Of a stretch of 64,000 nucleotides of DNA, positions 110-22,879 are shown piece by piece (the stretch's first letter is position 1; each line of letters opens with the position of its first letter). Below the pieces are notes generated by a model. That model did no database searches. It was not told where the DNA came from and saw nothing but the letters and a program-made list of their open reading frames with translations. Location: the NCBI GenBank assembly GCA_965206125.1, contig CBDBIN010000041.1:155674-219673 (forward strand), written 5' to 3'. The stretch comes from Terriglobia bacterium. GTDB lineage: Bacteria > Acidobacteriota > Terriglobia > 20CM-2-55-15. A program made the position numbers and the translations under genes.

Positions 110-1690
110 TTGCCTGCAGGATTGGAATTGGATTCAAAAACAGGAATGATAGCTGGCATGCCTACCGAACCAGGCATGTTTGCCGTGACTTTCCGGGTGA
201 GAGACTATGACGAAAGAGGTCTTGGTGCTGCTACGGAAGCTACCATCCACATCACGGAGACGACAACTGATATAGACAACAATGATCTCTTGGAGAGTTT
301 TTCGTTCAGCGACCGTGGCGGATCATCAACGACCAGTCGGGGAACAGCCACAACTACGACCGTTGGCTACGGACGGATAAGTCCAGATTCCGGCATGACG
401 ACGCCTTCCGGTCTAGCCATATTTGGGTTTATCCAAAATGGCGTTCTGGTCACAGAGGCCGGCGTTCCCGCGGCAGCACCAATCCAAGAAGGCCGCATCT
501 TCGCTGAAGTAAACGGCCCGGTGAACACGGGACTCGCCATCGCCAACCCCAACGACGTAGCCGCCACAATCTCGTTCTTCTTTACCGACGTGAATGGAGT
601 GAACTTCGGCAGCGACAACTTCCCGCTCGGTGCGAACGAACAGACTGCGAAGTTTCTGGATCAGGACCCATTCAACGGCGGAACGTCCGTGCTGGGAACG
701 TTCACATTTACATCGTCCGTACCTATTTCTGTCGTCGCCCTCCGAGGGTTCACCAACGAGCGAGGCGATTTTCTAATCACCACGCTGCCAGTCGCACCAC
801 TATCGTCAACATTCACGGGCCCGGTTTACTTCCCTCACTTTGCCGATGGCGGGGCCTGGACCACACAAGTCATTCTCGTGAACCCCACAGATTCCACGAT
901 AACGGGCAACATCGAGTTCCTAGGCCAAGGCAGTGGTACGACAGCGGCCACACCGGTAACGCTGGCGCTAGTCGGTAGACAAATCGAGCCAAGCTACTCG
1001 TATTCCATCTCACCACGCAGTGCACAGCGATTCACGACTTCAAATCCCGCCGGTGCGACTTCGGTAGGATCGGTTCGGGTGACGCCGGATGTTAGTAGCA
1101 CGAGCCCTTCTGGCCTTGGAATCTTCTCCTTCATTACGGGTGGGATTACGGTGTCTGAAGCTGGTGTACCCGCGCTTCCGGAAGCATCAGCGTTTAGGGT
1201 GTACGTTGAGGCGTCTGGGACACCTGGGGCAATTAACTCGGTCCGTAGTGGACTGGCGATCACTGACACGTCGGGATCGACGAATACCGTGACGATGGAA
1301 TTGACGGATTTGAACGGCGCAACGGTGGGTGCGGCCGCAATTCTATCCATTCCACCATCTGGTCAGGTCGCCCGATTCATCGACGAGTTCTTTACCCTGC
1401 CTGCCAACTTCTCAGGGGTACTGCGAGTAACGTCAACCTCAGATGTGGCAATTGTGGGACTGAGGGCGCGTACGAACCAACGTGGCGATTTCATGATTAC
1501 AACAACACCCCCGTCCGATGAAGTGGCGGCTCCCACCAGCGTGGATACGTACTTCCCTCACTTTGCCGATGGTGGGGGCTGGTCTACGCAATTCGTCTTG
1601 TTCAGTGGTACGGCAGGACAGACTTCGGCGGGAAGTCTGAGCTTTATCGACCAGGCTGGTCAACCACTTGATCTGGAACTCCAACAGTGA
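110..1690 (+). CDS. Secreted/cell-surface repeat protein: N-terminal He_PIG-like Ig motif (LPAGLELDSKTGMIAGMPTEPGMFAVTF) followed by two ~210-aa internal repeats, each ending in a YFPHFADGGxW motif
   Basis: Long ORF from the track. The internal duplication is visible in the translation. Only a TTG start is available after the in-frame stop at 65-67, so the 5' end is uncertain. Confidence 0.5.
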   Translation: MPAGLELDSKTGMIAGMPTEPGMFAVTFRVRDYDERGLGAATEATIHITETTTDIDNNDLLESFSFSDRGGSSTTSRGTATTTTVGYGRISPDSGMTTPSGLAIFGFIQNGVLVTEAGVPAAAPIQEGRIFAEVNGPVNTGLAIANPNDVAATISFFFTDVNGVNFGSDNFPLGANEQTAKFLDQDPFNGGTSVLGTFTFTSSVPISVVALRGFTNERGDFLITTLPVAPLSSTFTGPVYFPHFADGGAWTTQVILVNPTDSTITGNIEFLGQGSGTTAATPVTLALVGRQIEPSYSYSISPRSAQRFTTSNPAGATSVGSVRVTPDVSSTSPSGLGIFSFITGGITVSEAGVPALPEASAFRVYVEASGTPGAINSVRSGLAITDTSGSTNTVTMELTDLNGATVGAAAILSIPPSGQVARFIDEFFTLPANFSGVLRVTSTSDVAIVGLRARTNQRGDFMITTTPPSDEVAAPTSVDTYFPHFADGGGWSTQFVLFSGTAGQTSAGSLSFIDQAGQPLDLELQQ

Positions 1691-1744
1691 ACATCATCCT
1701 GAACTTCTTTGAAGAACTGAAGGAACGGGTGCCTGTACCGTAGC
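1672..1744 (+). pseudogene. Orphan C-terminal tail fragment of a Ser/Thr kinase-TolB family gene (SGTPTVNIILNFFEELKERVPVP*)
   Basis: In a different frame from the preceding ORF and directly after its stop. Translation matches the tail of kinase 3635-6334 (NVVLNWFEELKERVPPP*) and is near-identical to the orphan tail at 18740-18814. Confidence 0.5.
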
Positions 1745-2184: not shown

Positions 2185-2763
2185 TCAGGCCGCCTGATAC
2201 TGGGCCTGATAGTCGCAGTCTCGTTTCCAGACCGCCCACACTCTTCGGGCCAGCTTGTTGGCCACCGCAACGGCCGCCTTGTTATGTCCTCGAAGTTCCT
2301 GAAGTCGAACACCCCATCGCTGTAATTCCGATGGGGTCTCTGCCTTCTGGGCCCTCCATAACACCGAACGACCTCCGTGGATGAGCAGCGTCCTGAGATA
2401 GCGATCACCACGCTTACTGATTCGATCCAACCGACGCTGATTGCCACTGGAATGTTCCCGCGGTGTGAGTCCCAGATAGCTGGCAAACTGGCGCGATGAT
2501 CGAAATCGCTGGATATCGCCGACAAACCCCACCAGGGCTGTGGCGGTCAACAGCCCTACTCCAGGGATCGAGCGGAGACGCGCCACCACCGGTGTTTGCT
2601 CGGCCAGAGATTTCAGCTCCCTGTCCACGGTGTGTAAGTGAGACTCCAGTTCCCGTATCTCTTCACACACTTGGTCCAACATCTCCCGAACCACACTGGG
2701 GATCTCGATCTCGGCATCCTCGATCAGTCCCATCACTCCCGGTACCAGATGGCGTGCGCCGAG
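2185..2763 (-). mobile_element. IS110-family transposase, C-terminal (Transposase_20-like) fragment only; N-terminal DEDD domain missing
   Basis: Translation carries SIPGVGLLTATALVGFVGDIQRFRSSRQFASYLGLTPREHSSG...ISKRGDRYLRTLL, the typical IS110/IS116/IS902 C-terminal block. An in-frame stop lies at 2764-2766, so the N-terminal half is missing. Confidence 0.7.
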
Positions 2764-2806
2764 TCAAGCCCATTCTTAGTTGAAACTCTCCACGGCTCAC
2801 GATTGG

Positions 2807-3490
2807 TCACGCAACCTTCTTCTTCGATCTCGTCGACGTCTTCGCCTCAATCTTCAGCTCCCGCCTGAGGGCTTCGCGGAGCTTTGGAAGATGACGGTAG
2901 CCGATCACCTTCCTCAAGCGTCGTTCGATGTCGATGAGCGCCGTCGCCAACCAGCGCTGCCGCTGGCTCGAGTTCTTCCAATGATCGACCTTCGCGCACC
3001 TTTCCTCGACGAGGGCATTGACCGATTCCAAGCAATTCGTCGTCTTGAACGAACGGCCCAGGACCCCGTACACGCCGAGTCGATGCAACGTGAGGGTCTC
3101 CTCCAGGCCTTCCTCAAGGCTCGCAGCGGCCGATTGGTTTCGCTCCTCGAGCTCTCCATGGAGCTGTTCGAGGGCCGCCCGGGCTTCGTTGTACTCCGGG
3201 CGCTGGTACGCACGCTGAAGCCGCTTGCGCCACGCGGCTTGCTCGGTCTTCGACAGGTAGCTCACCACGTTCTCGCGTTTGTGCCATTGGCAGCGTTGGA
3301 CCAGGGCTCGATTACCGAATGCCCGCTTGACTGCCGCGCGCAGACCTTTGCCGCCGTCGACGATCACCAGCACGCCTTCAGAGATGTCCAGGCCTCGCTC
3401 CATCAATGAACGGAGAAACGGAGTCAGTACCTGCTCGTTCTCCGTACTCGTCTCCACGAAGCCTAAGAAGCGTTTGTCGCCCGTAACCAT
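2807..3490 (-). mobile_element. IS256-family (Mutator-like) transposase, C-terminal half fragment
   Basis: 227-aa ORF with the IS256 C-terminal signature (...QRCQWHKRENVVSYL...). It lacks the N-terminal ~170 aa that carry the first DDE residues. The fragment abuts the truncated kinase gene at 3490/3494. Confidence 0.75.
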
Positions 3491-3634: not shown

Positions 3635-6334
3635 GTGGTCGCTCAAGGCATGCCCCAACAGCTGGCACAGCCGATGATCGGGCGGCATGTCGGGGTTTAC
3701 GAGATCCAGGCCCTGATCGGTCGGGGAGGGATGGGCGATGTCTATCAGGCCCGGGACTCCCGGCTGGACCGCAACGTTGCGATTAAGACGTTACCGGACG
3801 TGTTCAGTTCGGATCCCGAGCGGCTGTCCCGGTTCGAGCGCGAGGCCAGGATCGTCGCTTCTCTCAACCATCCCAATATCGCGGTCATCCATGGGCTTGA
3901 AGAATACGACGGAAACCGTTTTCTCGTTCAGGAGCTGGTTGCGGGCGAAACACTGGCGGAGCAGCTCGAAGACGGCCCGCTTCCCATCAAGGAAGCGCTT
4001 CAACTGGCGGTTCAGATTGCTGCGGCGCTCGAAGCCGCCCACGAGAACGGCATCATCCATCGGGACCTGAAGCCTGCCAACATCAAGGTGACCCCCGATG
4101 ATCTCGTGAAGGTTCTCGACTTCGGCCTGGCCAAATCGATGGCGCGAGATGATGCCGACATGAACGCGTCGGTCGCCGTGACGGCCTCGACCGAACCCGG
4201 AGTTATCCTGGGGACGGCGGCCTACATGAGTCCCGAGCAGGCACGTGGCAAGCGGGTCGACAAACGGACCGACATCTGGGCGTTCGGATGCGTCTTGTAC
4301 GAAATGCTTACTGGGCGCCGACCGTTTGTGGGTGAAACACTTTCAGACGCGATCGCCAAGATTCTCGAGACCGAACCCGACTGGCAATGCCTCCCCGAGG
4401 GAATCCACCCAAGGATTCGCGAACTGATCGAACGTTGCCTCGACAAGGACGTCAAGAGTCGGTGGCACGACATCGCGGATGTGCGGTTGGACATTCAGAA
4501 GGTTCTGACCGATCCGGACGGCACCGTGGTCCAGCCCGTCGTCGCCGCGCAATCCCAGATCACGATCCCTTCGTCGCAAATCCGGGTCGTCGCCATCTTG
4601 TTGGTCGTGGCGCTGGCCGGCTATGCGGTCTGGCGCCTGATTCGCCCTGAACCGCCCACCCCGCTTACGGTATCTCGCTTCTCGTTGACCCTTCCCGAAA
4701 CCGATGAGATCACCGGCAGCGGTGTGATGACCCTGTCACCGGACGGCAACCGGTTCGTCTATGCGGCCGCACGCGACGGGGTGCAGCAGCTCTTCCTCCG
4801 TTTCCGGGATCAATCGGACCCGATCCCGATCCCGGACACCGAGGGCGCAGTACACCCGTTTTTCTCGCCAGACGGCAACTCGGTGGGCTTTTTTGCAGGA
4901 GGCGTGTTAAAGAAGATCCCGTCTTCAGGTGGATCCGCCGCGACCGTCAGTCGGGCCGGCCACTACGGCCCATCCAGTTGGGGACCCGACGAAAGCATCG
5001 TGTTCGCTTCGGTGACGGGACTGATGCAGGTGCCGACGGCAGGGGGCGAACCCCGACCGCTCACTACAGTAAATGGGGCCGACATGCACCTGTGGCCGGC
5101 GTTCCTCCCGGATGGAAAGGCCGTGCTCTTCACGATCTGGAAGAGGGGCGCACTTTCGGAGAAGAAGGTGGCAGTGGTCTCGCTAGAGACCGGCGAGCAG
5201 CACGTTCTGGCGGATGGCGCCGTTGCCCATTATGCTTCGTCGGGACATCTCGTCTTCGGACGTGAAGGTTCGCTCTGGGCGGCGCGATTTGATACGGAGC
5301 GCCTGGAGCTGACGGGAGAACCTGTTCCGACGGTCGAAGACGTCGAGGTCGACTCCTATGGTTGGACGGACTACTCGATTGCAGGAGACGGCTCACTGGT
5401 CTATCGGGCCGGCGTGGAACCGGCAGGCCGCACGCTTGTGTGGGTAGACCGGGACGGGCAGGAAGAGCCCCTCGCGGCGGCTCCGCGCAACTATTTCGAT
5501 CCCAGCATTTCCCCCGACGGGACACGAGTCGCCTTGACCGTTCTCGATGGCAGTGAGGTTCGAGAGAGCCAGAGCATCTGGATCTGGGACCTCACCCGCG
5601 AGACGCTGACCCGGCTGACCTCCGATGAGGGGATGGACGTCAAGCCTGTCTGGACACGCGATAGTCAGCGTATCGCTTTCATGTCGGACCGCCCGGATGG
5701 CTCCGGTGTCTACTGGACGGCAGCCGACGGCACCGGGAGGCCTGAACGCCTCGTGTCGGCTCCGGATCGATTCCTCGTCCCGACTTCCTGGTCTGGTGAC
5801 GGGAACACGATGTTGCTTTCCGAGGTCTTGAGCGACAACACCGGTTTTGACATCGGTGCGCTGTCGATGGATGGAGACCACGAGTTGAAACATCTCCTGC
5901 AGGAAGAATTCATTGAAGCCGGTGCGTACACCTCACCAGATGGGCGGTGGATGGCCTATGTGTCCACGGAGTCGGGCGGCCGTGAAATCTACGTGAGGCC
6001 GTTCCCCGACGTGGAAGCCGGAAAGTGGAGGGTGTCCACAGAGGGTGGAACGGACTCCGGGTGGTCGCCCGATGGGCGGGAATTGTTCTACCGTGCCGGC
6101 CCGGCGATGATGTCTGTCGCCGTGGAAACCGAGCCGACCTTCAGCGCGGGGATTCCGAAGACCCTATTCGAAGGAACGTATTTTGCGGCGGTGGGTCCGC
6201 AGTGGGCGGTCGGCTCGGACGGACGGTTCCTCATGATCAAGCGCGGTTCGACCTCGGACCGCACCGCGGTTCCACGCTTCAACGTCGTCCTGAACTGGTT
6301 TGAAGAGCTGAAGGAACGAGTGCCGCCGCCGTAA
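3635..6334 (+). CDS. Ser/Thr protein kinase with transmembrane segment and C-terminal TolB-like beta-propeller; N-terminally truncated by the IS256 fragment
   Basis: Kinase motifs GRGGMGDVY, VAIK, HRDLKPANIKV, DFGLAK and GTAAYMSPEQ are present. A TM helix (RVVAILLVVALAGYAVW) is followed by repeated SPDG propeller motifs and the conserved tail LNWFEELKERVPPP. In-frame upstream sequence 3467-3634 encodes ...ALERQADERAAFLDEICLDDADLRREVESLL, the family N-terminal extension, and has no start codon: the first ~20 codons are lost to the IS256 junction. Confidence 0.85.
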   Translation: MVAQGMPQQLAQPMIGRHVGVYEIQALIGRGGMGDVYQARDSRLDRNVAIKTLPDVFSSDPERLSRFEREARIVASLNHPNIAVIHGLEEYDGNRFLVQELVAGETLAEQLEDGPLPIKEALQLAVQIAAALEAAHENGIIHRDLKPANIKVTPDDLVKVLDFGLAKSMARDDADMNASVAVTASTEPGVILGTAAYMSPEQARGKRVDKRTDIWAFGCVLYEMLTGRRPFVGETLSDAIAKILETEPDWQCLPEGIHPRIRELIERCLDKDVKSRWHDIADVRLDIQKVLTDPDGTVVQPVVAAQSQITIPSSQIRVVAILLVVALAGYAVWRLIRPEPPTPLTVSRFSLTLPETDEITGSGVMTLSPDGNRFVYAAARDGVQQLFLRFRDQSDPIPIPDTEGAVHPFFSPDGNSVGFFAGGVLKKIPSSGGSAATVSRAGHYGPSSWGPDESIVFASVTGLMQVPTAGGEPRPLTTVNGADMHLWPAFLPDGKAVLFTIWKRGALSEKKVAVVSLETGEQHVLADGAVAHYASSGHLVFGREGSLWAARFDTERLELTGEPVPTVEDVEVDSYGWTDYSIAGDGSLVYRAGVEPAGRTLVWVDRDGQEEPLAAAPRNYFDPSISPDGTRVALTVLDGSEVRESQSIWIWDLTRETLTRLTSDEGMDVKPVWTRDSQRIAFMSDRPDGSGVYWTAADGTGRPERLVSAPDRFLVPTSWSGDGNTMLLSEVLSDNTGFDIGALSMDGDHELKHLLQEEFIEAGAYTSPDGRWMAYVSTESGGREIYVRPFPDVEAGKWRVSTEGGTDSGWSPDGRELFYRAGPAMMSVAVETEPTFSAGIPKTLFEGTYFAAVGPQWAVGSDGRFLMIKRGSTSDRTAVPRFNVVLNWFEELKERVPPP

Positions 6335-6427
6335 GGCACCGAACTGCTCAGCCGTAAGGCACCCCAGGAACTCCTGAGCGAGGTCCTAGGCATCCACATA
6401 CATGTGTAACGCTGACCCTTCCACAGA

Positions 6428-7261
6428 TCACTTCTCCCAGCTGAAAACACCTCGCTCAAAATCGAACTGGATCCGTTTCAGTCCGAGCGATGCAACCGAG
6501 AGGACGCCGAGCTTGTCGACGCCCTCCAGCGGCGGAGCAGAAGTCACGTTTGCGCGCAACTCGCGCCAGAGGGACGACCCTAAGCGCACTTCCCGCAAGC
6601 GAACTTCGGTCACGGTGGCGGCACCGGTAAGGTTCAACGTCCGGACCGATCGCGTCAGTGGCGAACGGACGATCTGACTCAACCTGTCAGTCTGGTGGAG
6701 TGTGATCCCGGCTGCCCCCGTGTCCACCGAAAGGCGAACGGGCTGACCACGAACCTCGAGGGTCACGATCGCCAGGGACTGCTCCAGATCGAAGGGAACC
6801 GACTCGGGCAAGGTTTCCGTGGGCTCGAAGACGATCTCCTCGGTCTCGAAGTCGATGCCGAAGTCGGACCGGCCAAGCACCTCCATGCCGATGATCGCGT
6901 CCACGCCCCAGTCTGAGAGGTCCGCGACAAGAACGACAGCCGCCGTGTAGATTGGACCGATTCGAAGGTTACGGACGATGGCCTGGTCGACGGTTGAAGT
7001 TTTCCCGAACGCCGCCACGACTGAGGACATGCGGGGGATGTCCAGACGATCCGCGATGCGGGTGTCGATGACGGAACGGTTTGCGCCCGTGTCAATCAGA
7101 GCTTGGAGCGGCAACCCTTCTACCTGGGCCTCGACCACGATCAGGTGGCCTCTCCGGGTTTCGAAGCTGATGCGGAGCTCGCCGGGATTCGCTGCCCAGA
7201 CCCTGGGACCGGTTGCCGTTGCCACGACTGTCAGCAGCAGGAGACTTGCGATTCGGTGCAC
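6428..7261 (-). CDS. Secreted retropepsin-like (clan AA) aspartyl protease with two DTGA active-site motifs
   Basis: Signal-peptide-like N-terminus. LIDTGANRSVI and SVDTGAAGITL motifs are each followed by Ile-Gly-type flaps (AIIGMEVLG). Confidence 0.65.
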   Translation of the reverse strand: MHRIASLLLLTVVATATGPRVWAANPGELRISFETRRGHLIVVEAQVEGLPLQALIDTGANRSVIDTRIADRLDIPRMSSVVAAFGKTSTVDQAIVRNLRIGPIYTAAVVLVADLSDWGVDAIIGMEVLGRSDFGIDFETEEIVFEPTETLPESVPFDLEQSLAIVTLEVRGQPVRLSVDTGAAGITLHQTDRLSQIVRSPLTRSVRTLNLTGAATVTEVRLREVRLGSSLWRELRANVTSAPPLEGVDKLGVLSVASLGLKRIQFDFERGVFSWEK

Positions 7262-7387
7262 GGTGTCGACCTCCCGGGCCGGGTGTCATTGGCCCTCGCA
7301 TCGGGAGGCGGAAACCGCCGTCAAAAACCGGCAAACGTGCTGGAGATTTCCGTTTCAGAGCCTGAAAATTTCCTACTTTGCTTGCCA

Positions 7388-8600
7388 CCTCAACCAATCG
7401 ATGCAACACAAGCGTTGAATCGTTCTGCTGGAGTTTCAAACTCCAGCGTCTTACGCGGCCGTTCATTGAGCTTACGTGCCACCTTGTTCAGGTGCGCCTG
7501 CGAGTGCACCGATAAGTCGGTTCTCTTTGGGAAGTACTGTCGGAGCAGGCCATTCGTGTTTTCATTGGAACCACGTTGCCATGGACTCTGCGGATCGCAG
7601 AAGTAGACGTCGATGTCGGTCGCCAGGGTAAACCGCCGATGATCTCCCATTTCCTTGCCGCGATCCCAGGTCAGCGATTTATACAGCTCGGTCGGTAGTT
7701 TCTTCGCGTGCTTGATCAGTGCAGGCACGACGGTCTTGGTCTGTTTATCCGACACTTTCACCAACATCACGTAACGGGTATGGCGTTCGACCAGGGTCGC
7801 AATGTAGGTGTTGTTCGATCCCACTATCAGATCTCCCTCCCAGTGACCGGGAACGGCACGATCTTCGACCTCGGCCGGGCGCTCACGAATCGATACGATA
7901 TCGGCGAGATCCCCTTTCCCGTGACCTTTGTGACTGGAATGTCGGGATCGACGAATCGTTCGTCTCGACCTCAGATGTCTAAGTAGTTCTTTCTTAAACA
8001 CCCCGCGCGCCTGCACGAATAGGCTGCGATAGATCGTCTCGTGGGACACGTGATACGACTCATCCTCTGGATAGGATCGCTTCAGCCAGCCGGCGATCTG
8101 TTCGGGCGACCAATTCCGCCGGAGCTTCCTCGCCACCATTCGCCGTAACCGCGGATGGCGACCCAACTGACATCGCTTCGGGCGACGGGCCCGGTTCCAA
8201 GCCTGTTCATCGGCGACAGACGCCCGGTAGTCATCATAGCCCCTATTGCGCTGGATCTCCCGGCTCACCGTCGAGGGTGAACGCCCCAGACACTCTGCGA
8301 TCGAACGCAACGACTGCTCGGCCGCGATCCCGCGGGAGATCTCCTCACGTTCCGACAGGCTCAAAGCCAACCTCGACCGTCGTCGTGGTCGAGGACGAAT
8401 GCCTCCGGTATGCGCCAGCTGACAATATACAGACGATGACAGCTTGCCAAACGCTCGCCCGATCTCATGCAGAGATTCCCCTCGCCGCCACCGATCCCAT
8501 ACCTCCGCCTTCTCCGCCGCCGTGAAACCGAATCGCATCCCTTTCCGCATACACTCCACCTCTTCCTTTTAAGATAAAGTGTTGCGTCGATCCGTTGAGA
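7388..8600 (-). mobile_element. IS30-family insertion sequence, copy 1 (about 1.21 kb)
   Basis: Terminal inverted repeats CTCAAC(G/C)GATCGA(C/T)GCAACAC found at both ends by alignment with copy 2. Flanking sequence diverges outside 7388 and 8600. Confidence 0.85.
7390..8559 (-). CDS. IS30-family DDE transposase (389 aa)
   Basis: Motifs HWEGDLI, TWDRGKEM and FCDPQSPWQRGSNENTNGLLRQYFPKRTDL. N-terminal HTH. Five aa differ from the copy at 11710-12879. Confidence 0.9.
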   Translation of the reverse strand: MECMRKGMRFGFTAAEKAEVWDRWRRGESLHEIGRAFGKLSSSVYCQLAHTGGIRPRPRRRSRLALSLSEREEISRGIAAEQSLRSIAECLGRSPSTVSREIQRNRGYDDYRASVADEQAWNRARRPKRCQLGRHPRLRRMVARKLRRNWSPEQIAGWLKRSYPEDESYHVSHETIYRSLFVQARGVFKKELLRHLRSRRTIRRSRHSSHKGHGKGDLADIVSIRERPAEVEDRAVPGHWEGDLIVGSNNTYIATLVERHTRYVMLVKVSDKQTKTVVPALIKHAKKLPTELYKSLTWDRGKEMGDHRRFTLATDIDVYFCDPQSPWQRGSNENTNGLLRQYFPKRTDLSVHSQAHLNKVARKLNERPRKTLEFETPAERFNACVASIG

Positions 8601-8646
8601 TCAGCCTAGAATGTGGGCACTTGTAAGTCACTGACAAACCGGGGTC

Positions 8647-9185
8647 ATGCCCATGAAGGCGTCTTCGTCTGCGGAGGTAACCGGCCTACTCCTTGCCTGG
8701 CGGCAAGGGGACGATGCAGCTCTCGAGCAGCTCATGCCCGTCGTCTACGCGGAGCTGCGCCGACGAGCGCAGCACTACATGGCCGGGGAGAGGGCCGGGC
8801 AGCTCTCACCACGTTGTTGCTCGTCGCCGTCGCCACCATCGCCGCGTGGAACTTGAAGCCATCCGACCCCCGGCCCGTAAGCCGATTTGTCATTGAGCTA
8901 CCGGAGGACCAGGTTCTGACTTCGGTCGGTGGTTCTGTGGTCTTTTCGCCAGATGGAACTCGAGTCGTATACGCCGCAAGCGGAGGACTCTACCTACGCT
9001 CAATCGATACACTGGGCGCGACACTGATTCCTGGGACCGAAGGGATATCTGGCAGCCCGTTCTTCTCTCCTGACGGCGAGTGGGTCGGTTATCGCTCAGC
9101 CGACCAGTTAATGAAGATCGCCCTCACTGGTGGCCCCCCTGTGAGTCTGTGCGACGCCGGCCCTCTGTACGGTGCTAGTCCCTGA
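8647..9185 (+). pseudogene. Degenerate kinase-family gene: ECF-sigma-like N-terminal region joined by deletion/frameshift to the TM + TolB-propeller start; kinase domain absent
   Basis: Frame 1 encodes TGLLLAWRQGDDAALEQLMPVVYAELRRRAQHYMAGERAGQL (sigma-70 region-2-like start of this kinase family). Frame 2 continues ...LTTLLLVAVATIAAWNLK...VVFSPDGTRVVYAAS...SPFFSPDGEWVGY. The gene ends at the IS1380-like insertion. Confidence 0.6.
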
Positions 9186-11027
9186 TCAAGCGTGATTGAC
9201 GAGGTATTGATAGCGGCATAGCAGCAGAAGTACCCGAAATGCCCCCGTTCCGTGTGAATAAAGACTTGGAAAGAGTCTACGGAAAAGGAGGCATTTCGGA
9301 TGAACGATTATACGCGCAAGAACATGAAGAACCGCAAGCGGCGAATCGAGCGCCGGCTTGCGGACCGGAATTGGACAGATCAGGCGGCGCCGATGTTTTC
9401 GGCGAGCAACATTCATTATGAGATGGGAGAGCGGACGCGCGGCACGGCGGTGGGCGGAATCGGGATGATGCAGTTGGTGGCGCGGCGGACGGGGCTGGTC
9501 AAAGCCATCGACGAGAGTGTGCATGTGCTGAAGCGGCACTTGCCGTATCACGAATCGGATCACGTGCTGAACATCGCCTATAACGCGTTGAATGGAGGGA
9601 CGTGCCTGGAGGACATCGAGTTGCGGCGCAACGACGAAGTGTATCTGGATGCGCTGGGAGCGCAACGGATTCCGGACCCGACGACGGCGGGAGACTTCTG
9701 CCGGAGATTTGAGCCCAGCGACGTGGAGTCTCTGATGGAGGCGACGAATCAAGTCCGGCTGCGAGTCTGGCGCCAGCAGCCCGAGGCGTTTTTCGAAGAA
9801 GCGGTGTTGGACGCCGATGGGACACTGGCTGAAACCACAGGCGAATGCAAGCAAGGAATGGACGTGGCCTACAACGGGACCTGGGGGTATCACCCGCTGG
9901 TGATTTCGCTGGCGAATACTCAAGAGCCGCTGTACCTGGTCAATCGCAGCGGTAACCGGCCCTCGCATGAGGGAGCGGCCGCACGGTTCGACCAGGCCAT
10001 CGCGCTGTGCCGTCGAGGCGGGTTTCGCCAGATCCTGCTGCGCGGGGACACCGACTTCAGCCAGACCCGGCACCTGGATGGATGGGACGACCAGGGCGTG
10101 GGATTCATCTTCGGCATCGACGCCATGCAGAATCTGGTGGCGCTGGCCGATGAACTGGAACCGCACCAATGGACGCGTCTGGAACGGCCCGCCAAGTACG
10201 CGGTGGCCACCGAACCGCGCCAACGTCCCGACAACGTGAAGGAACAAGTCGTTCGGGAGCGCGGTTTCGACAATATCCGGTTGCAGGGCGAGGATGTGGC
10301 CGAGTTTGCGTATCGGCCCAGAGCCTGCGACCGGGACTACCGCGTTGTCGTGGTGCGGAAGAATCTGTCGGTGGCCAAAGGCGAACAGGTGTTGTTCGAC
10401 GACATCCGATACTTCTTCTACATTACCAACCGCTCGGATTCGGCCAGCCAGATTGTGCTCCGTGCGAATCAACGGTGCAATCAAGAGAATCTCATTGAGC
10501 AGCTCAAGAACGGCGTTCAGGCCTTGAGGATGCCGGTCGGGGATCAGACCAGCAACGGGGCCTACATGGTCATGGCGTCGCTGGCCTGGACACTGAAGGC
10601 GTGGTTTGCGTTGCTGCTGCCCGAAACCGGACGCTGGGGCCAGAAGTATCAGGCCGAGAAACAGACGGTACTGCACATGGAGTTCAAGACGTTTCTAAAC
10701 GCCTTCATGTTCGTGCCTTGTCAGCTCGTGCGCACCGGGCGGCGCATCCTCTTCAGGATTCTGGCCTGGAACCGGTGGTTGCCGGTCTTGTTCCGTGCCG
10801 TGGATGTGCTGCATCAACCTCTGCGATGCTGACCCGATCATGGCCCTGAGCCCGGGCGATCGAGGTCCCGGTTTCTGTCAACCGCTCCAACACCAGCGAG
10901 GCTGAACTGAAACAGATCCAACAGAAACCCGATACCTGGATAAAACGATCCGGGAGCGGGATTCTATGCCTCGAATTTTATGCGCGCAACCTGGCCGTTG
11001 GCGGACTGGTTATGCGCTTGTTTTGGG
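9180..11027 (+). mobile_element. IS1380-like (IS4-superfamily) insertion sequence, about 1.85 kb, inserted into the TolB-propeller pseudogene
   Basis: GCTAGT is present on both flanks (9174-9179 and 11028-11033), a likely target-site duplication. The propeller ORF reads ...LYGAS before the element and resumes ...GASWGTDDTILFGQ after it. Imperfect terminal IRs CCC....CAAGCG. Confidence 0.7.
9300..10832 (+). CDS. IS1380-family/IS4-like DDE transposase (510 aa)
   Basis: Long ORF. The C-terminal signature R-x3-E-x6-K (RCNQENLIEQLK) follows YITNRSD. Sits inside the TSD-bounded element. Confidence 0.75.
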   Translation: MNDYTRKNMKNRKRRIERRLADRNWTDQAAPMFSASNIHYEMGERTRGTAVGGIGMMQLVARRTGLVKAIDESVHVLKRHLPYHESDHVLNIAYNALNGGTCLEDIELRRNDEVYLDALGAQRIPDPTTAGDFCRRFEPSDVESLMEATNQVRLRVWRQQPEAFFEEAVLDADGTLAETTGECKQGMDVAYNGTWGYHPLVISLANTQEPLYLVNRSGNRPSHEGAAARFDQAIALCRRGGFRQILLRGDTDFSQTRHLDGWDDQGVGFIFGIDAMQNLVALADELEPHQWTRLERPAKYAVATEPRQRPDNVKEQVVRERGFDNIRLQGEDVAEFAYRPRACDRDYRVVVVRKNLSVAKGEQVLFDDIRYFFYITNRSDSASQIVLRANQRCNQENLIEQLKNGVQALRMPVGDQTSNGAYMVMASLAWTLKAWFALLLPETGRWGQKYQAEKQTVLHMEFKTFLNAFMFVPCQLVRTGRRILFRILAWNRWLPVLFRAVDVLHQPLRC

Positions 11028-11636
11028 GCTAGTTGGGGCACGGACGACACCATTCTCTTTGGGCAGTCCGAAGGCATCATGCGTGTTTCCGCTAACGGCG
11101 GGATTCCGGAGACGCTGGTACCAGCGGAGAGAGGAGAACGGTTTTTTGGCCCGCAGATCCTGCCCGACGGGGATTCGTTGCTCTACACGGTGGCGGTCTG
11201 GATGAACCCCCGTGCGACCCTCTGGGATGAAGCCCAGGTTGTCATCCGGTCGCTGGAAACGGGGGATGAGAAATCGCTGTTTGAAGGCCACGATGCCCGA
11301 TATCTATCTACGGGGCATCTCGTGTACATCTCAGCGGATGTTGTGTATGCCATTCCCTTTGATTTGGCCCGTCTGGAATCCTCGGGCGAGTCGGTTCCAG
11401 TTGTGAATGGCGTTGCGCGAACCCCGCCCGCTTTAACAGTGGACTCGACTGGGGATGGGCATTTCGGTCTCTCTAATCAAGGTTCGCTGGTGTACGTTCC
11501 TGCCGGTGTTCTGGGAGCAAGACCCGACCCTCAGAGGGGATTGGTTTGGGTGGACCGCGACGGAAGTAATGTGACTCCACTCGATCTTCCTAAGGCATGT
11601 GACCTTCTGATTGACCTCAACTCCTTTCCCTCATAG
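11028..11636 (+). pseudogene. TolB-like beta-propeller fragment (continuation of gene 8647-9185 after the IS1380-like insertion), 3' truncated
   Basis: Homologous to the propeller of 3635-6334 (…LVWVDRDGSNVTPL matches LVWVDRDGQEEPL). Homology stops about 80 bp before the IS30 copy-2 end. Confidence 0.6.
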
Positions 11637-11668
11637 TATTTAGCCAACTTTTCGCTGTTCGTTGCTGG

Positions 11669-12882
11669 TCTCAACGGATCGACGCAACACTTTATCTTAA
11701 AAGGAAGAGGTGGAGTGTATGCGGAAAGGGATGCGATTCGGTTTCACGGCGGCGGAGAAGGCGGAGGTATGGGATCGGTGGCGGCGAGGGGAATCTCTGC
11801 ATGAGATCGGGCGAGCGTTTGGCAAGCTGTCATCGTCTGTATATTGTCAGCTGGCGCATACCGGAGGCATTCGTCCTCGACCACGACGACGGTCGAGGTT
11901 GGCTTTGAGCCTGTCGGAACGTGAGGAGATCTCCCGCGGGATCGCGGCCGAGCAGTCGTTGAGTTCGATCGCAGAGTGTCTGGGGCGTTCACCCTCGACG
12001 GTGAGCCGGGAGATCCAGCGCAATGGGGGCTATGATGACTACCGGGCGTCTGTCGCCGATGAACAGGCTTGGAACCGGGCCCGTCGCCCGAAGCGATGTC
12101 AGTTGGGTCGCCATCCGCGGTTACGGCGAATGGTGGCGAGGAAGCTCCGGCGGAATTGGTTGCCCGAACAGATCGCCGGCTGGCTGAAGCGATCCTATCC
12201 AGAGGATGAGTCGTATCACGTGTCCCACGAGACGATCTATCGCAGACTATTCGTGCAGGCGCGCGGGGTGTTTAAGAAAGAACTACTTAGACATCTGAGG
12301 TCGAGACGAACGATTCGTCGATCCCGACATTCCAGTCACAAAGGTCACGGGAAAGGGGATCTCGCCGATATCGTATCGATTCGTGAGCGCCCGGCCGAGG
12401 TCGAAGATCGTGCCGTTCCCGGTCACTGGGAGGGAGATCTGATAGTGGGATCGAACAACACCTACATTGCGACCCTGGTCGAACGCCATACCCGTTACGT
12501 GATGTTGGTGAAAGTGTCGGATAAACAGACCAAGACCGTCGTGCCTGCACTGATCAAGCACGCGAAGAAACTACCGACCGAGCTGTATAAATCGCTGACC
12601 TGGGATCGCGGCAAGGAAATGGGAGATCATCGGCGGTTTACCCTGGCGACCGACATCGACGTCTACTTCTGCGATCCGCAGAGTCCATGGCAACGTGGTT
12701 CCAATGAAAACACGAATGGCCTGCTCCGACAGTACTTCCCAAAGAGAACCGACTTATCGGTGCACTCGCAGGCGCACCTGAACAAGGTGGCACGTGAGCT
12801 CAATGAACGGCCGCGTAAGACGCTGGAGTTTGAAACTCCAGCAGAACGATTCAACGCTTGTGTTGCATCGATCGGTTGAGGT
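11669..12882 (+). mobile_element. IS30-family insertion sequence, copy 2; inverted relative to copy 1
   Basis: The whole element, including 41 bp upstream of the ATG and the IR overlapping the transposase stop, matches copy 1. Flanks are unrelated. Confidence 0.85.
11710..12879 (+). CDS. IS30-family DDE transposase (389 aa), near-identical to 7390-8559
   Basis: Same motifs as copy 1. Five aa substitutions. Confidence 0.9.
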   Translation: MECMRKGMRFGFTAAEKAEVWDRWRRGESLHEIGRAFGKLSSSVYCQLAHTGGIRPRPRRRSRLALSLSEREEISRGIAAEQSLSSIAECLGRSPSTVSREIQRNGGYDDYRASVADEQAWNRARRPKRCQLGRHPRLRRMVARKLRRNWLPEQIAGWLKRSYPEDESYHVSHETIYRRLFVQARGVFKKELLRHLRSRRTIRRSRHSSHKGHGKGDLADIVSIRERPAEVEDRAVPGHWEGDLIVGSNNTYIATLVERHTRYVMLVKVSDKQTKTVVPALIKHAKKLPTELYKSLTWDRGKEMGDHRRFTLATDIDVYFCDPQSPWQRGSNENTNGLLRQYFPKRTDLSVHSQAHLNKVARELNERPRKTLEFETPAERFNACVASIG

Positions 12883-12907
12883 GGCATTTCAACAGGGACT
12901 TCTAACC

Positions 12908-13037
12908 ATGCAACCCGGCACGTAGCTTGGCCACTACGAGATCCTTTCCGCGCTTGGCAAGGGTGGGAATGGGACTGTGTGGCGCGAGAAGGGCAAAGTC
13001 GCAATCCTCGCTCAGGTGTGGTGTGGCAACTTCTAAC
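12908..13037 (+). pseudogene. Ser/Thr kinase N-terminal fragment with in-frame TAG (MQPGT*LGHYEILSALGKGGNGTVWRE...)
   Basis: Glycine-loop motif LGKGGxG. Parallels 13665 ([27 protein letters not shown]). A stop replaces Gln at codon 6, and homology is lost after about 40 codons. Confidence 0.5.
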
Positions 13038-13284
13038 GAAAGCATCCCGTCCGCCCAGAACAAGAACCTTCTGGATCGGTTCCTATCTCTGTTCAGCGTG
13101 GTCAAGTCTGGTGAGGGCGGTAGCGCGATCCTGCTGACCCTGAATGTCTTCCTGCTCCTCGGTGCCTACTACTTCCTGAAGATCTCTCGGGACACTTTGA
13201 TTCTCGCGGAGTCGGGCGCGGCCGCGGCGAGCTAGGTGGCGAAACTTCGCGGAGCTTTCGCCGAACGGGAGGTGGCTCTCCTAC

Positions 13285-13659
13285 ATGTCTGATGAATCAG
13301 GCCAGTGGCAAATCTACGTCGTCAGCTATCCCGACCAGCGAGTAGCCAAGCGGCTGGTGTCCTCGACAGGTGGCGAGGAACCGCGCTGGAGCCCGGATGG
13401 GAGCGAGATCATTTACAGGTACGGGTCGCAATGGTTTTCCGCCTCGTTTTCGGACGATCCGTCGCTGGAACTGGGGTCACCAGAGGTACTGTTTGAAGGA
13501 CCCTATATCAACATCCCCGGGTACTCCTGGGACATCTCACCGGATGGTGACCGCTTTCTCTTGGTGGAGAACCCCGCCCAAAACGAGCCTCTTACCAAAC
13601 TAGTCGTGATCACGAAGTTCTTCGACGAGATTCGGCGAAGACTGCCCGTGGATCAGTAG
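13285..13659 (+). pseudogene. C-terminal fragment of a kinase-TolB propeller gene (last blades plus tail variant ...[14 protein letters not shown])
   Basis: Aligns with residues about 780-899 of 3635-6334 (EIYV..P....W..S..GG....WSPDG.E). No upstream kinase or propeller sequence remains. Confidence 0.55.
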
Positions 13660-13664
13660 GGGAA

Positions 13665-13901
13665 ATGACTCCCGGCACCCAACTCGGCAGCTACGAGATC
13701 CTCTCACCACTCGGCAAGGGCGGGATGGGAGAAGTGTGGCGTGCACGCGACCAGAAGCTCGGACGCGAAGTCGCCATCAAGACCCACCCCGAAGAGTTTG
13801 CCAAGGACGAGGAACGCCTGGCAAGCCCTTCAAGGCCTGGACTACCGGTAGCTGCGTCGGAGTTGCCTGATTCTACCAGTCTGTCCCACTTGTCCCACTA
13901 A
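13665..13901 (+). pseudogene. Ser/Thr kinase N-terminal fragment (78 aa: G-loop and VAIK lysine, then truncation)
   Basis: [45 protein letters not shown]..., then non-kinase sequence and a stop. Confidence 0.55.
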
Positions 13902-15516: not shown

Positions 15517-16183
15517 GACAACTCCTGTTTCATCCTGAAACCGGCCTCCCCCGCCCCACTACAGATGGCGCCCTGCAAGGCCGAATTCCTAGGTATGGTT
15601 CCTGATAGAGCGGGTTATAGAATAAGGACAGTGTGAAGTAAAGACCGAACGTTCGAAGTACGGAACAATTTGGTACGGAAAACCGTGCTCATCTGAGGGC
15701 TGCTCTGCCAGGCATGCGACCTTCTGATTGCTATCAACCCCCACCCGTAGTTAGATTGACCAAGTCTTGGAGTGATCCAGTTCGCTTTCGCGCGGATGCT
15801 GTCTGGTCGGGTCCAAGGAGCGCAAGGGTACCATTTCATCCCGTACAATAAAGTACTTGGTAATTTAAAGTAAGTCGTGAGAGAGTCGTGCACATGAGGA
15901 ATCCTCCGCCGTTGCTGGTTGTCATCGCTGGTGCCGGGCAGCTACTGCTCGCCGCGGTGGCCATGTGGGTATGGGAGACGATCCCGCGCGAGGCCGATCC
16001 GGAGGCGCTGCCGTCGCGCGTGCTCGAGCCGGAGCGCCGCAGGCCCGCAGGCTCAGCTCGCCAGCGCGTTGTGCCGGTACGCCGAAGTTGGCGATTCCAG
16101 CGTAATCTTCCGCCGGCCCGTAAGGGAGGCATGCGGGCAACCCGGCACAAGGCTCGTGCCTTATGCCGGAGGGTTGACTGACC

Positions 16184-17521
16184 ATGACAAGAGCCACGAT
16201 CGCCGTCGGGGCATTCGCCATCGTACTCGTCCTCCTCGTCCTGGCCACCGGCCGCCGGAACCGTGAGCAGGACGTCGACCCCGCGATGGCCACCGCGCCC
16301 GCGATTCCCCCTTCGACCGCGGCGGCGGCCCACCAGGGCTTCCTCTACGGCCGGATCACCACCGATGACGGCGCCACCTACGAGGGGCGGCTGCGCTGGG
16401 GGGGCGACGAGGAGGCGTTCTGGGGCGACTACTTTAACGGTTTCAAGGACGAGAATCCCTGGGTTGCCCACGTGCCGCCCGAGCACCTCAAGGAGCGCCT
16501 CCCGATCGAGATCTTCGGAGTCGAGATCGCCCAGTGGGAGAGCCAGATCAACCTCGGCCGGCCTTTCATGGCGCGCTTCGGCGACATCGCGCGCATCGAG
16601 CCGCGGGGTCGCGACATTCGGGTGACCCTCAAGGACGGGGCCGTGTTTGCCCTCGACCGCTTCGCCGCCGACGACCTCGCCGACGGCGTGCGAGTGTGGG
16701 ACAGTCGCGGCGTTGTGGACTTCGACGAGTGGCGGATCCGCATCATCGAGCTTCTCCCAACCGCCCGACTAGGCGCCGTCCCCGACCGGCTGCACGGCAC
16801 GGTGCGCACGCGGGGTGGCGACTTCACCGGCTTCGTCCAATGGGATCGGGAGGATTGCGTCGGTACGGACGAACTCAACGGCTACACCGCCGAAGGTGAC
16901 CTCAACCTTCGTTTCGACGGCATCCGCTCCATCGCGCGGAACTCGCCGGACAGCTCCCTCGTGACGCTTCTCGACGGCCGCGAGATCGTGCTCTCGGGCA
17001 CCCGCGCAGTCGGCCAGGGCAACCGCGGGATCTACGTCGACGACCGGCGCTACGGCCGGGTGCTGATTTCCTGGGACGCTTTCGAGCGCGTCGACTTCAG
17101 TCCCGGCGGTAGCGGCCCCGCCTTCGGCGACTTCCCGCCGGGGCGCCCGCTCACGGGCAGCGTCACCACCCGCGCCGGCCGCCGCCTTGCCGGCCGGCTG
17201 GTCTACGACCTCGACGAGAGCGAGATCACCGAGACGCTCGACGCCCCATCCGAGGGCGTGGACTACACTATCCCCTTCGGCCTGATCGCCTCGATCTTGC
17301 CCCCCGGCCGCGAAGAGCCCGGCGTCCAGCATGCCAGGGTGATCCTCCATAGCGGCGAGGAACTGCAACTTGAGCCCACCGGCGACCTCGGCGAGGGGAA
17401 TGCCGGCATGCTGATCTTCGTCGACGACAGTGAGCGCCCCGAGTACGTGCTTTGGACCGACGTCGAGTGGGTCGACCTCGACCGACCGCCGGCGATGTAC
17501 CCGCCGCTCGGCGGGCGCTAG
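16184..17521 (+). CDS. Membrane-anchored hypothetical protein with three internal repeats (G-R/T-hydrophobic-TTR/DDG.....GRL.W/YD), encoded in a very high-GC (~70%) segment
   Basis: N-terminal TM helix (IAVGAFAIVLVLLVLA). Repeated blocks begin GRITTDDGATYEGRLRWGGD, GTVRTRGGDFTGFVQWDRED and GSVTTRAGRRLAGRLVYDLDE. The many overlapping ORFs on both strands here are GC artefacts. Confidence 0.5.
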   Translation: MTRATIAVGAFAIVLVLLVLATGRRNREQDVDPAMATAPAIPPSTAAAAHQGFLYGRITTDDGATYEGRLRWGGDEEAFWGDYFNGFKDENPWVAHVPPEHLKERLPIEIFGVEIAQWESQINLGRPFMARFGDIARIEPRGRDIRVTLKDGAVFALDRFAADDLADGVRVWDSRGVVDFDEWRIRIIELLPTARLGAVPDRLHGTVRTRGGDFTGFVQWDREDCVGTDELNGYTAEGDLNLRFDGIRSIARNSPDSSLVTLLDGREIVLSGTRAVGQGNRGIYVDDRRYGRVLISWDAFERVDFSPGGSGPAFGDFPPGRPLTGSVTTRAGRRLAGRLVYDLDESEITETLDAPSEGVDYTIPFGLIASILPPGREEPGVQHARVILHSGEELQLEPTGDLGEGNAGMLIFVDDSERPEYVLWTDVEWVDLDRPPAMYPPLGGR

Positions 17522-17690
17522 ATCACCAGCCGCCCCGCGATTCAACGCGTCATCGGAATCATTCAACGGTTCTTGAGTCACTTGGGGGGCGACGCCGACC
17601 CTAGGTGCCGGATGTAATCGGCTCCCGAGCCGAGCACCCCAAAACCCCGGGGTTATTGTCCGGCTGGCGCAGATCTTCTACTCAATTCGT

Positions 17691-18739: not shown

Positions 18740-18814
18740 GGGACCTCAGTGCCGAAAGTGAACATCGTCCTCAACTGGTTTGAAGAACTGAAGGAACGGG
18801 TGCCGGTGCCATGA
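18740..18814 (+). pseudogene. Orphan C-terminal tail fragment of a kinase-TolB family gene (PGTSVPKVNIVLNWFEELKERVPVP*)
   Basis: Translation matches the tail of 3635-6334 and the orphan at 1672-1744. The nucleotide similarity begins at the same breakpoint in both and ends at the stop codon. Confidence 0.5.
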
Positions 18815-18833: not shown

Positions 18834-19574
18834 GTGACATTAGTATCCGAGCAGAGTCAGTGTCCTTTGTGTGGAAAAAGAGTCGGTGACCGTCCGATCT
18901 TCGCTACCTGGGGAGTGTTCGGCTGGCCCGACCTAATGCGTTACTGCGATGCCGCCATGCACTGGGAATGTTACGAAGCGTGGCCGCACCGGGAGCGGTT
19001 TGCAGAGTCGTATGTCCGGTTTTCGGTCGAGTCCACCAAGGGAAACCCATACTGGGGAGAATCGCACCTCGATGACGATGTTTTTGTTTCCGTTAGCCCA
19101 TCGAGCCATGAGGTACAAGTGATGCCTATGGTAACGGGTTCACGGATTCGCGTCGGCTTTGCGGACTGGAAGTTGTGGATATCGAACCTTGACTATGCAA
19201 CACGCGGACAGAGGGACTTGGAGAGGGCAGCCATCGCCAAGGTACTGCCCCGTCTCCAGGAAAAGTTTCCCGAGCCGGATATGTTGGTACAGGCTATCGA
19301 CTGGGTTGAGAAGGATAGGATACAGCGATCCTTACAACTGGAGACTGAGCGAGCGGAGCAAGAGCGCCTTGAGGCTATCCGGCCGCACAACGAAGCGTGT
19401 CGGCGCATAGCCGAACAAAAGCCAGCTTGTCCTTATTGTGATTCGGCCGAGAACCTGGAGTTCTTAAACAAGAGTCCTGAACGCAAATCCTACTTCATCT
19501 GCCGGGTTTGCGGGAGATCCTCTCGACCTGAAGAGTTCGCGGCACAAGGACCACCCGACTGGGTGCGCAATTGA
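18834..19574 (+). CDS. Hypothetical protein with N- and C-terminal zinc-ribbon-like Cys pairs (CPLCGK...C..C ; CPYCDS...CRVCGRS)
   Basis: ORF with paired CxxC motifs at both ends and a central coiled-coil-like charged region. Confidence 0.4.
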
Positions 19575-19576
19575 CG

Positions 19577-19860
19577 ATGATCGGCCAGACCATATCCCAC
19601 TGCAAGGTCCTCAAACAGATCGGGGGTGGAGGTATGGGCGTTGTCTACCGGGCCGAGGACACGTCCCTGGGGAGTATGTGATCAACGACGGCGGGACACT
19701 GTTCGTCTACGACCCGCGCAGCGGAGAGCGCCGAGAGCTTCAGGAGCGTCGGGGAGTGGGGTCCGATCCGAACTCCCGGGACGGCCGCTGGGACTATTAC
19801 TGGGTAACCAGCGATACTGCGGACCTCTGGCTGATCGAACTGCCCGACGACCCCCAGTAG
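19577..19860 (+). pseudogene. Deletion remnant of a kinase-TolB gene: kinase N-terminal 31 aa ([32 protein letters not shown]) followed, out of frame, by a propeller C-terminal piece (…GTLFVYDPRSGERRELQ…LWLIELPDDPQ*)
   Basis: G-loop motif [11 protein letters not shown], then a stop at 19668. ORF 19678-19860 resembles the last TolB-like blades. Confidence 0.45.
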
Positions 19861-21289: not shown

Positions 21290-21740
21290 CGGCATTGTCT
21301 TGACGAAGGAACAAACCCGAAGACGCCGAGGATGTCTTTGCTCCAATCGACAGCAACCACGACTACCTTCGGGAGTGGTTCGCGTGGGGCGACCCCGCGA
21401 AGGGCGTCGAAGCCACTCTGGATTTCATTGAACGTTCCCTGAAGCAGGACGAGGAAAAGAACGGCTTCCAATGCTGCATCCGACTGGAGGGCAAGACTAT
21501 CGCGTGATGGGGTTCGTGAAGGTCGATAAGAAGACCGAGTTAGGTTAGTGGATCGCACCGTCATGCCAAGGGCGGGGCGTAATCACGAAAGCCGCCAGAG
21601 CTCTGACCGACCACGCATTCTTAGAGTGGGGTTTGAATCGAGTCGCAATTTACGCATCCGACGCCCGAGAGGTCGAGGATGCCGCGAGTCGACTGGAAGC
21701 CTACAAAAGTGGGAAGAAACGGGCTGTCGAGGCGGTCTAG
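21290..21740 (+). pseudogene. GNAT-family N-acetyltransferase (RimJ/RimL-like) remnant with multiple stops and frameshifts
   Basis: Across frames the translation reads ...GFQCCIRLEGKTI..(stop)..GFVKVDKKTELG..(shift)..TKAARALTDHAFLEWGLNRVAIYASDAREVEDAASRLEAYKSGKKRAVEAV*. No intact ORF is in the track. Confidence 0.45.
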
Positions 21741-21821
21741 CGTTGGATCGCTGTGTCCCCGCAAATCTCCCCACAAACAAAAAGCCGGGGAAAGCTCCCC
21801 GGCTAAGTTCTTTATCATCAA

Positions 21822-21894
<73 letters not shown>

Positions 21895-22848: not shown

Positions 22849-22879
22849 CGTCCAATCAGGTACGAGCAAAACCAGGCTG

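Follow-up and report, generated by a model that had tools for sequence, protein, structure and literature searches.

Kinase-linked extracytoplasmic function (ECF) sigma factors, ECF43 and other groups among them, are an established class of bacterial regulators (PMC7826278). Here we focus on a 64,000-nt stretch of a Terriglobia (Acidobacteriota) genome, called the window and numbered from its start, in which relatives of such modules survive only in pieces. Between positions 8600 and 13901, short remnants of an ECF gene and of Ser/Thr kinases with a TolB-like propeller are interleaved with insertion sequences (IS). This interval is most probably a decayed sigma-factor/kinase-sensor array that was shaped by serial illegitimate deletion and received three simple IS insertions. 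It is a case of ordinary genome decay and not a new system. Minor when taken alone, the locus is a well-resolved example of gene death in the ECF-sigma/Ser-Thr-kinase arrays of Acidobacteriota.

The likeness to ECF43-type modules, such as VP0055 and its kinase in Vibrio or EcfK-PknS in Xanthomonas, is seen in intact relatives of the locus. At L002, which lies on the complete chromosome OZ253536.1 of a metagenome-assembled genome (MAG), a PF07638/TIGR02999 ECF gene stands directly upstream of a membrane Hanks-type kinase. Unlike the described modules, the one in the window is dead, with about 50 sigma codons left and the adjoining kinase domain deleted. Set against those modules, the family has a TolB-like PD40 propeller as its sensor domain. 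An ECF gene is present in only 8 of 75 related loci, most arrays consisting of kinases alone.

A second point of reference is Candidatus Solibacter usitatus Ellin6076, whose Ser/Thr kinase and ECF sigma families are described as expanded, with less than 50% identity between paralogs, and which carries many near-identical transposases (PMC3174227; PMC3469429). The window agrees with this in having paralogs that are about 40-50% identical and IS copies that are 99.4% identical. However, these papers describe the expansion of such families (the word "pseudogene" is absent from PMC3174227), whereas the present locus shows the death side.

Remnants of the array

The Ser/Thr-kinase/TolB-propeller family is very large and tandemly arrayed. 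Scanning GTDB species representatives with six patterns yielded 287 relatives confirmed by tblastn, and in the 75 related loci that were kept, up to seven copies stand in tandem within 22 kb. From these loci, 148 family proteins (products of open reading frames (ORFs) 650 aa or longer with a match to the intact paralog of the window) were used to build a profile of 960 positions, which was searched against the six-frame translation of the whole window. The remnant sites matched with E-values from 1e-53 to 4e-6, together with orphan tails; beyond these, the profile matched the intact gene and, at 43.9 kb, a single unrelated kinase. Each remnant covers a different sub-range of the profile, tblastn with the intact paralog gave the same fragment map, and about 95% of the 5.3-kb interval is accounted for (Table 1).

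All eight pieces that an initial annotation of this DNA had listed in the interval are present, with profile, family-model and alignment matches far beyond chance. Its description of a graveyard of remnants of a large Ser/Thr-kinase-TolB family, interleaved with IS, is borne out, a single intact member being left in the zone. The extent of 5.3 kb was set too narrowly: decay extends between about 1.7 and about 19.9 kb, a zone that includes extra tails, a promoter and truncated IS110 and IS256 elements and holds one intact member against at least seven remnants. When membership of the family is taken as a kinase domain, a transmembrane segment, a PD40 propeller and a tail in one frame, the intact paralog has them all and no fragment does, the fragments of the interval covering profile positions 366-677, 73-92, 815-950 and 57-119 only. 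In protein, their identity is about 40-50%, whether the comparison is with the intact paralog or with any of the fetched relatives. None of the pieces in the interval is predicted to yield a working sigma factor or kinase sensor.

The leftmost piece comes from the ECF gene. Its protein is 92% identical to that of the ECF gene in locus L008 and 81% to that in L002, while the deletion has taken sigma-4 entirely, along with the remainder of sigma-2. A complete sigma-2 plus sigma-4 protein has about 185 residues; the piece scores 36.3 bits where the cut-off is 126, and it is a remnant of a family member, not a member. The kinase/propeller pieces that follow are assigned to four paralogs, P, Q, R and S. 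The promoter/leader of Q was recognized by a promoter scan and by alignment to uninterrupted upstream regions in relatives; a related kinase subgroup is preceded by a conserved TTGACC-17 nt-TATCAT promoter/leader. The in-frame stop that had been noted in the kinase N-terminus of Q is a TAG at 12923-12925 where four homologues read CAG, and the alignment also reveals a 15-nt internal deletion.

Between Q and R lies the N-terminus of a putative transporter. Three of its relatives are named "ATP:ADP antiporter, AAA family" by JGI; the 68-aa piece has no Pfam or NCBIfam match, and its assignment rests on short proteins that are 66-82% identical. The six relatives (P0123-P0128) are all short, at 56-121 aa, some of them on contigs of up to 3.2 Mb, and related genomes may often carry this transporter gene in truncated form.

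Paralog S, which is 72-77% identical to many paralogs, starts 5 bp after the stop of R, and the same stop-to-start spacing of tandem genes is found in L014, a further locus on OZ253536.1. The R/S boundary is a natural tandem-gene boundary and not a deletion junction. The ORF of S continues to 13901 in unrelated sequence. Across paralogs and species (e.g., L006, L029 and L014), the first ~160 nt of the S-type kinase subfamily (13664-13823) show 75-88% DNA identity, compared with about 65-70% for the rest.

A search of 5.8 billion proteins returned no near-identical intact gene for P, the transporter piece or R; only the window's own ORFs matched at 99-100%, and below these, identity did not exceed 56% (P), 82% (transporter piece) and 84% (R). 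As for an orthologue of P, the best match anywhere is 53-56%, and kinase gene #1 of L008 has no match to the P propeller. Within the limits of the protein collection searched, the pieces thus appear to be remnants in situ, not copies. Several small ORFs called on the contig (218, 88 and 124 aa) are pseudogene pieces.

Probable deletion junctions and inserted elements

Five junctions bound the pieces. At the first, near 8800, homology to the L008 ECF gene ends after the GERAG codons and the transmembrane segment of the propeller paralog comes next. The initial annotation had described an ECF N-terminus fused by internal deletion to the transmembrane/propeller start; the join is real, with the ECF part in frame 1 and the propeller in frame 3, and hence it is out of frame. 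By analogy with L008 and L002, about 1.8 kb would have been lost here. At the second junction, near 11592, the P propeller breaks off at about residue 615 and gives way to the promoter of the next kinase gene. Near 13000, kinase Q stops close to a VAI motif (residue ~35), about 25 bp upstream of the transporter start codon; near 13240, residue ~70 of the transporter is joined to residue ~764 of a propeller; and near 13830, kinase S ends after about 55 codons, with unrelated DNA beyond. None of the five lies against an IS end or connects corresponding positions of two paralogs, nor was a chimeric paralog seen. Two exact-match scans for the deletion junctions in JGI metagenome contigs gave no match.

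From the relatives, we infer an ancestral layout of an aspartyl-protease gene, a TIGR02999/PF07638 ECF gene and tandem membrane Ser/Thr kinases with a periplasmic TolB-like (PD40) propeller; at L008, the order is the protease gene, the ECF gene 28 bp on and then kinase genes. At least five illegitimate deletions (near 8800, 11592, 13000, 13240 and 13830) would have cut five or six genes to pieces of 90-930 bp, and one remnant would have gained the CAG-to-TAG nonsense codon and the 15-nt deletion. Three mobile elements would have inserted by ordinary transposition after the deletions or around the same time, an IS1380-family element into the P propeller and IS30-family copies just ahead of the ECF gene and kinase gene Q. 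Illegitimate deletion and one nonsense mutation are put forward because no junction joins equivalent positions of paralogs.

The transposase of the IS1380-family element scores 287.9 bits against NF033539 (cut-off 180) and 111.9 bits against PF13701 (cut-off 34.7). The element ends in CCCTGATCAAGCG and CGCTTGTTTTGGG, i.e., CCC...GGG, with inverted repeats of the form CCCnnnnCAAGCG, and GCTAGT stands as a direct repeat on both sides (9174-9179 and 11028-11033). The family-model match, the inverted repeats and the flanking direct repeat are shared with IS1380 and ISEcp1 and place the element in the IS1380 family. When positions 9180-11033 (the element and one GCTAGT) are deleted, the two parts of P fall into one frame of 333 open codons, and the insertion into the propeller with a GCTAGT duplication stands as it had been annotated. 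The restored junction reads LYGASWGTDD. Because P0002, the best homologue among the 5.8 billion proteins, carries the motif GASWGTDD of this junction (PYGASWGTDDTILFGQ there), GCTAGT is a true target duplication.

A 99.9% identical copy of the element lies in an unrelated gene on L001, a metagenome contig, and an identical transposase protein occurs on 26 contigs. No exact protein match was on record for the intact paralog, either start variant of the IS30 transposase, the 124-aa fragment or the protein P0001. CTAGT flanks every site compared, four complete and two half sites on five contigs (window 9174-11033; L001 2876-4740; L022 4264-6125 and 14871-16728; L007 from 22207; L057 to 221), and the base before it matches on both sides in three of the four complete sites. 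This suggests that the element makes a 6-bp duplication at a specific target. IS1380-family elements usually make duplications of 4-5 bp without a strict target; unlike these, the element of the window is flanked by CTAGT at all sites compared and has an apparent 6-bp duplication. The apparent specificity may be of minor use for mobile-element catalogues.

The two IS30-family copies lie in opposite orientation with 3058 bp between them, and 7 of their 1223 nt differ. Copy B had been annotated in the interval, whereas copy A, just to its left, had been overlooked. Their transposase scores 291.7 bits against NF033563 (cut-off 80), with HTH_38 at 1.1e-14 and rve at 8.8e-14, and both copies have the helix-turn-helix and DDE (rve) core, length and inverted repeats of the family. 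Duplications of 2 bp are typical of IS30 and ISApl1. The window element is like both in its HTH_38 plus rve transposase, its 1223 bp, its imperfect terminal inverted repeats and its 2-bp flanking repeats; unlike them, it has its conserved 21-bp imperfect inverted repeat, CTCAACSGATCGAYGCAACAC, set 7 nt in from each end.

Copy A separates the protease gene from the ECF gene, and with it removed the window aligns gap-free to L008. Copy B interrupts the leader of Q 22 bp short of the ATG of that kinase gene. The flanks of copy B (11593-11663 and 12889 onward) together make one continuous promoter/leader (TTGACC, 17 nt, TAKYAT) and kinase start codon, and the uninterrupted counterpart is found at four sites in three loci (L004, L050 twice and L059). 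A 2-bp target duplication flanks each copy, CT for A and TT for B, in keeping with the 2-3 bp of the family, though a 3-nt indel beside site B makes its exact length there less certain. These signatures show both IS30-family copies to be simple insertions. The IS had been taken to be nested; instead, there are three simple insertions, and none lies inside another within the interval. The 7 differences between the IS30 copies and the 99.9% identity of the IS1380-family copy to that of another assembly point to recent insertion. An inversion of the segment between the IS30 copies was considered and rejected, because the two sides of each copy still carry the same 2 bp. At 54242-55447 lies one more IS30-family copy, the third, which has diverged and shows 74-78% DNA identity to copies A and B.

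Table 1. Features of the decayed zone in window coordinates; profile positions refer to the 960-position family profile and residues to the intact paralog
Feature	Coordinates	Strand	Evidence
Orphan C-terminal tail remnant	1678..1740	+	Profile match 1678-1737 to positions 930-949, E 4.3e-5
IS110-family transposase, truncated	2185..2736	-	C-terminal Transposase_20 domain only; PF02371 E 7.1e-28
IS256-family element, truncated	2761..3490	-	C-terminal half of transposase; NF033543 positions 152-335 of 338; PF00872
Intact Ser/Thr-kinase/TolB-propeller paralog, 899 aa	3635..6334	+	Pkinase 1e-50; PD40 7e-25
Retropepsin-like aspartyl protease gene	6428..7261	-	PF13975 5.7e-21; ~72% nucleotide identity to L002, L003, L008
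IS30-family copy A, 1223 bp	7383..8605	-	CT at 7381-7382 and 8606-8607
ECF sigma factor N-terminal remnant, ~50 codons	8647..8800	+	PF07638 positions 2-45 of 185 (E 1.7e-7); TIGR02999 positions 1-45
Paralog P part 1, transmembrane segment and first propeller blades	8806..9179	+	Residues 322-447 (tblastn); profile match 8781-9176 to positions 366-498, E 2.9e-37; PD40
IS1380-family element, 1848 bp	9180..11027	+	Transposase 9300-10832
Paralog P part 2, propeller	11034..11591	+	Residues 447-610, ends ~615; profile match 11019-11591 to positions 496-677, E 1.3e-53
Promoter/leader of kinase gene Q	11593..11663	+	TTGACC-17 nt-TAGTAT at 11611-11639; resumes at 12889-12907 beyond IS30-family copy B
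IS30-family copy B, 1223 bp	11664..12886	+	TT at 11662-11663 and 12887-12888
Kinase gene Q N-terminal remnant, ~30-35 codons	12908..12998	+	Profile match 12926-12985 to positions 73-92, E 3.5e-6; homology span 12898-12995
Transporter N-terminus, ~70 codons	13023..13235	+	Putatively of ATP:ADP antiporter type; relatives 66-82% identical
Paralog R C-terminal remnant, last propeller blades and variant tail	13246..13659	+	Residues 764-897; profile match 13246-13653 to positions 815-950, E 2e-36; PD40
Paralog S kinase N-terminal remnant, ~55 codons	13665..13834	+	Profile match 13614-13823 to positions 57-119, E 2.2e-28; homology span 13664-13834
Second kinase-gene promoter/leader copy	15710..15790	+	20/21 identity to 11593-11613 (0 expected by chance); alignment
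Orphan C-terminal tail remnant	18746..18811	+	Profile positions 929-949, E 7e-7; 82% to L014 paralog tail
Kinase N-terminus and C-terminal piece	19577..19860	+	N-terminus 19577-19675 joined out of frame to 19672-19857; profile match 19559-19672 to positions 62-99, E 9e-12

Competing explanations

The initial annotation had attributed the fragments to homologous recombination between paralogs and to IS-mediated adjacent deletions. The setting speaks for such a model: the family is large and tandemly arrayed, five elements of four IS families lie in the first 13 kb, and the conserved 5' ~160 nt of the kinase genes are a possible recombination substrate. Moreover, outside the interval, a broken IS256 end coincides with the point upstream of the intact paralog from which the ECF gene has been lost. 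The junctions do not fit it, however, since they lie neither at equivalent positions of paralogs nor at IS ends and have left no chimeric paralog, and the three complete IS keep their direct repeats and interrupt continuous sequence. Even at 3486-3490 the IS itself is truncated, and the deletion must therefore have cut through IS256 and did not start from its end. We consider this model unlikely; the visible deletions do not appear to have been caused by IS, and recombination between paralogs is not needed to account for them. A chimeric or collapsed join of several paralog loci during assembly is more improbable still. Repeated gene families and multi-copy IS are classic causes of misjoins, yet misjoins do not produce IS direct repeats or restored continuity. 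Because the fragments are only about 40-50% identical to the paralog and relatives, the junctions offer no near-identical repeat that an assembler could have collapsed. Furthermore, a 287,260-bp contig in NCBI and ENA is recorded as the source of three small ORFs from the interval, and similar remnants occur in relatives with complete chromosomes.

It could also be asked whether the two IS30 copies and the 3058 bp between them are one mobile unit. IS30-family pairs can mobilise DNA as composite transposons flanked by 2-bp duplications, ISApl1-mcr-1-ISApl1 being an example (PMC5821093), and here 99.4% identical inverted copies bracket the ECF/propeller remnant and the IS1380-family element. A common outer duplication and foreign inner DNA would be expected of such a unit; instead, the outer flanks read CT on the left and TT on the right, and each copy has its own 2-bp repeat. 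The DNA to the left of copy A and just inside it is contiguous in L008, and that inside copy B and to its right is contiguous in L004, L050 and L059, so the bracketed DNA is in its native position. A composite transposon is thus very hard to credit. We give the least weight of all to a functional reservoir of silent gene-conversion cassettes, or a patchwork made by replication-based template switching, even though the P, R and S pieces are still open (333, 137 and 55 codons without stops) and three junctions fall within 1 kb. No high-identity DNA patch is shared with the intact paralog, the only internal match being one of 78% between the two kinase N-termini, and the protein collection, which holds the contig's own ORFs, contains no near-identical donor or recipient. 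One piece already has a nonsense codon and a 15-nt deletion, and the succession of tail, stop and next start is the natural tandem order. It would likewise be a considerable surprise if the bolder proposals held, namely that the fragment train came from one template-switching event or that silent donor cassettes diversify the kinase-sensor family, or, more modestly, that the IS1380-family element is strictly CTAGT-specific with 6-bp duplications.

Serial illegitimate deletion with simple IS insertions has its own difficulties. Intact orthologues were found for none of P, Q, R and S, and the exact junction bases and the deleted material are therefore inferred. For independent events, five deletions in about 5 kb would be densely packed, the more so as three fall within 1 kb, and an earlier IS, since lost, could once have mediated deletions. 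Two-base duplications are weak evidence alone, and the 3-nt indel near copy B leaves the duplication length there unproven. The correctness of the assembly is supported only indirectly, by the clean insertion signatures. All of these count against the explanation we prefer, in which genes would have been lost by plain illegitimate deletion and the recent IS insertions would be a by-product and not the cause.

The wider zone and its relatives

To the left of the interval, the first orphan tail reads PTVNIILNFFEELKERVPVP up to its stop, has an in-frame stop just before it and is part of the DNA repeat D1/D5. The broken end of the IS256-family element coincides with the resumption of homology (3486-3488) to L002 and to L003, the latter a locus on the complete MAG chromosome OZ252023.1. 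The intact paralog is 84% identical to the genes of these two loci (residues 1-897) and has no ECF gene upstream, whereas its L002 orthologue has a full 199-aa ECF gene at 9206-9805. Because a complete ECF gene stands at that position in L002 and L003, the intact paralog has lost its likely sigma partner; the gene is outwardly intact, yet it no longer has this sigma factor beside it.

In relatives, the neighbour conserved on the left side of the ECF gene is the aspartyl protease gene. L002 and L003 have the order protease, ECF gene and orthologous kinase; in the window, the kinase stands to the left of the protease. Alignment of the 90-bp junction between them (6335-6427) to both flanks in relatives gave no homology to either. 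At L008 5827-9733, neither the ECF gene nor the first kinase gene after it is a single ORF; each is broken into two or three that overlap, and the genes are either pseudogenes or carry frameshift errors of a long-read assembly.

To the right of the interval, the second promoter/leader copy has no kinase gene behind it, and the 21-nt motif common to 11593 and 15710 has no match in 76 related loci. The further N- plus C-terminal remnant reported at 19577-19860 is real, its N-terminus (71%) and C-terminus (40%) matching the same 1044-aa kinase protein of L014 (ORF 5715-8849). From about 13.9 kb to the edge of a tRNA-Lys (CTT) gene at 21822-21894 on the minus strand, the only RNA element from an Rfam scan, the window has no counterpart in OZ253536.1. 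Synteny with that chromosome resumes at 21655 (window 21655-25994 corresponds to L014 16063-20749). Positions 16000-17500 have a G+C content of 67-70%, compared with 53-62% around them, and the long ORFs of this stretch (16184-17521 on the plus strand and 16769-17581 on the minus strand) have no Pfam match.

Across 1.43 Mb of related loci, chained profile matches gave 130 full-length members, 28 N-terminus-only and 7 tail-only pieces. An N-terminus is fused to a tail in L036, a propeller piece lies beside an IS1380-family copy in L022, and similar remnants are also found in complete-chromosome assemblies of relatives. Because such remnants are many, gene birth and death are common in the clade, and the locus is a dense instance of clade-wide decay, not a different phenomenon.

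Farther along the window, a 178-nt unit is repeated in 2.8 tandem copies at 96% identity (39118-39609). The predicted hairpin of the repeat is not clearly better than those of shuffled sequences (z -1.7). The repeat looks like a dispersed repeat of the repetitive extragenic palindromic (REP) or miniature inverted-repeat transposable element (MITE) kind. Each unit opens with a motif of about 54 nt, GGAACCCGGTCACTACNGTTCCCGGTTCTG, which also occurs as single copies at 29430-29483 and 62828-62881.

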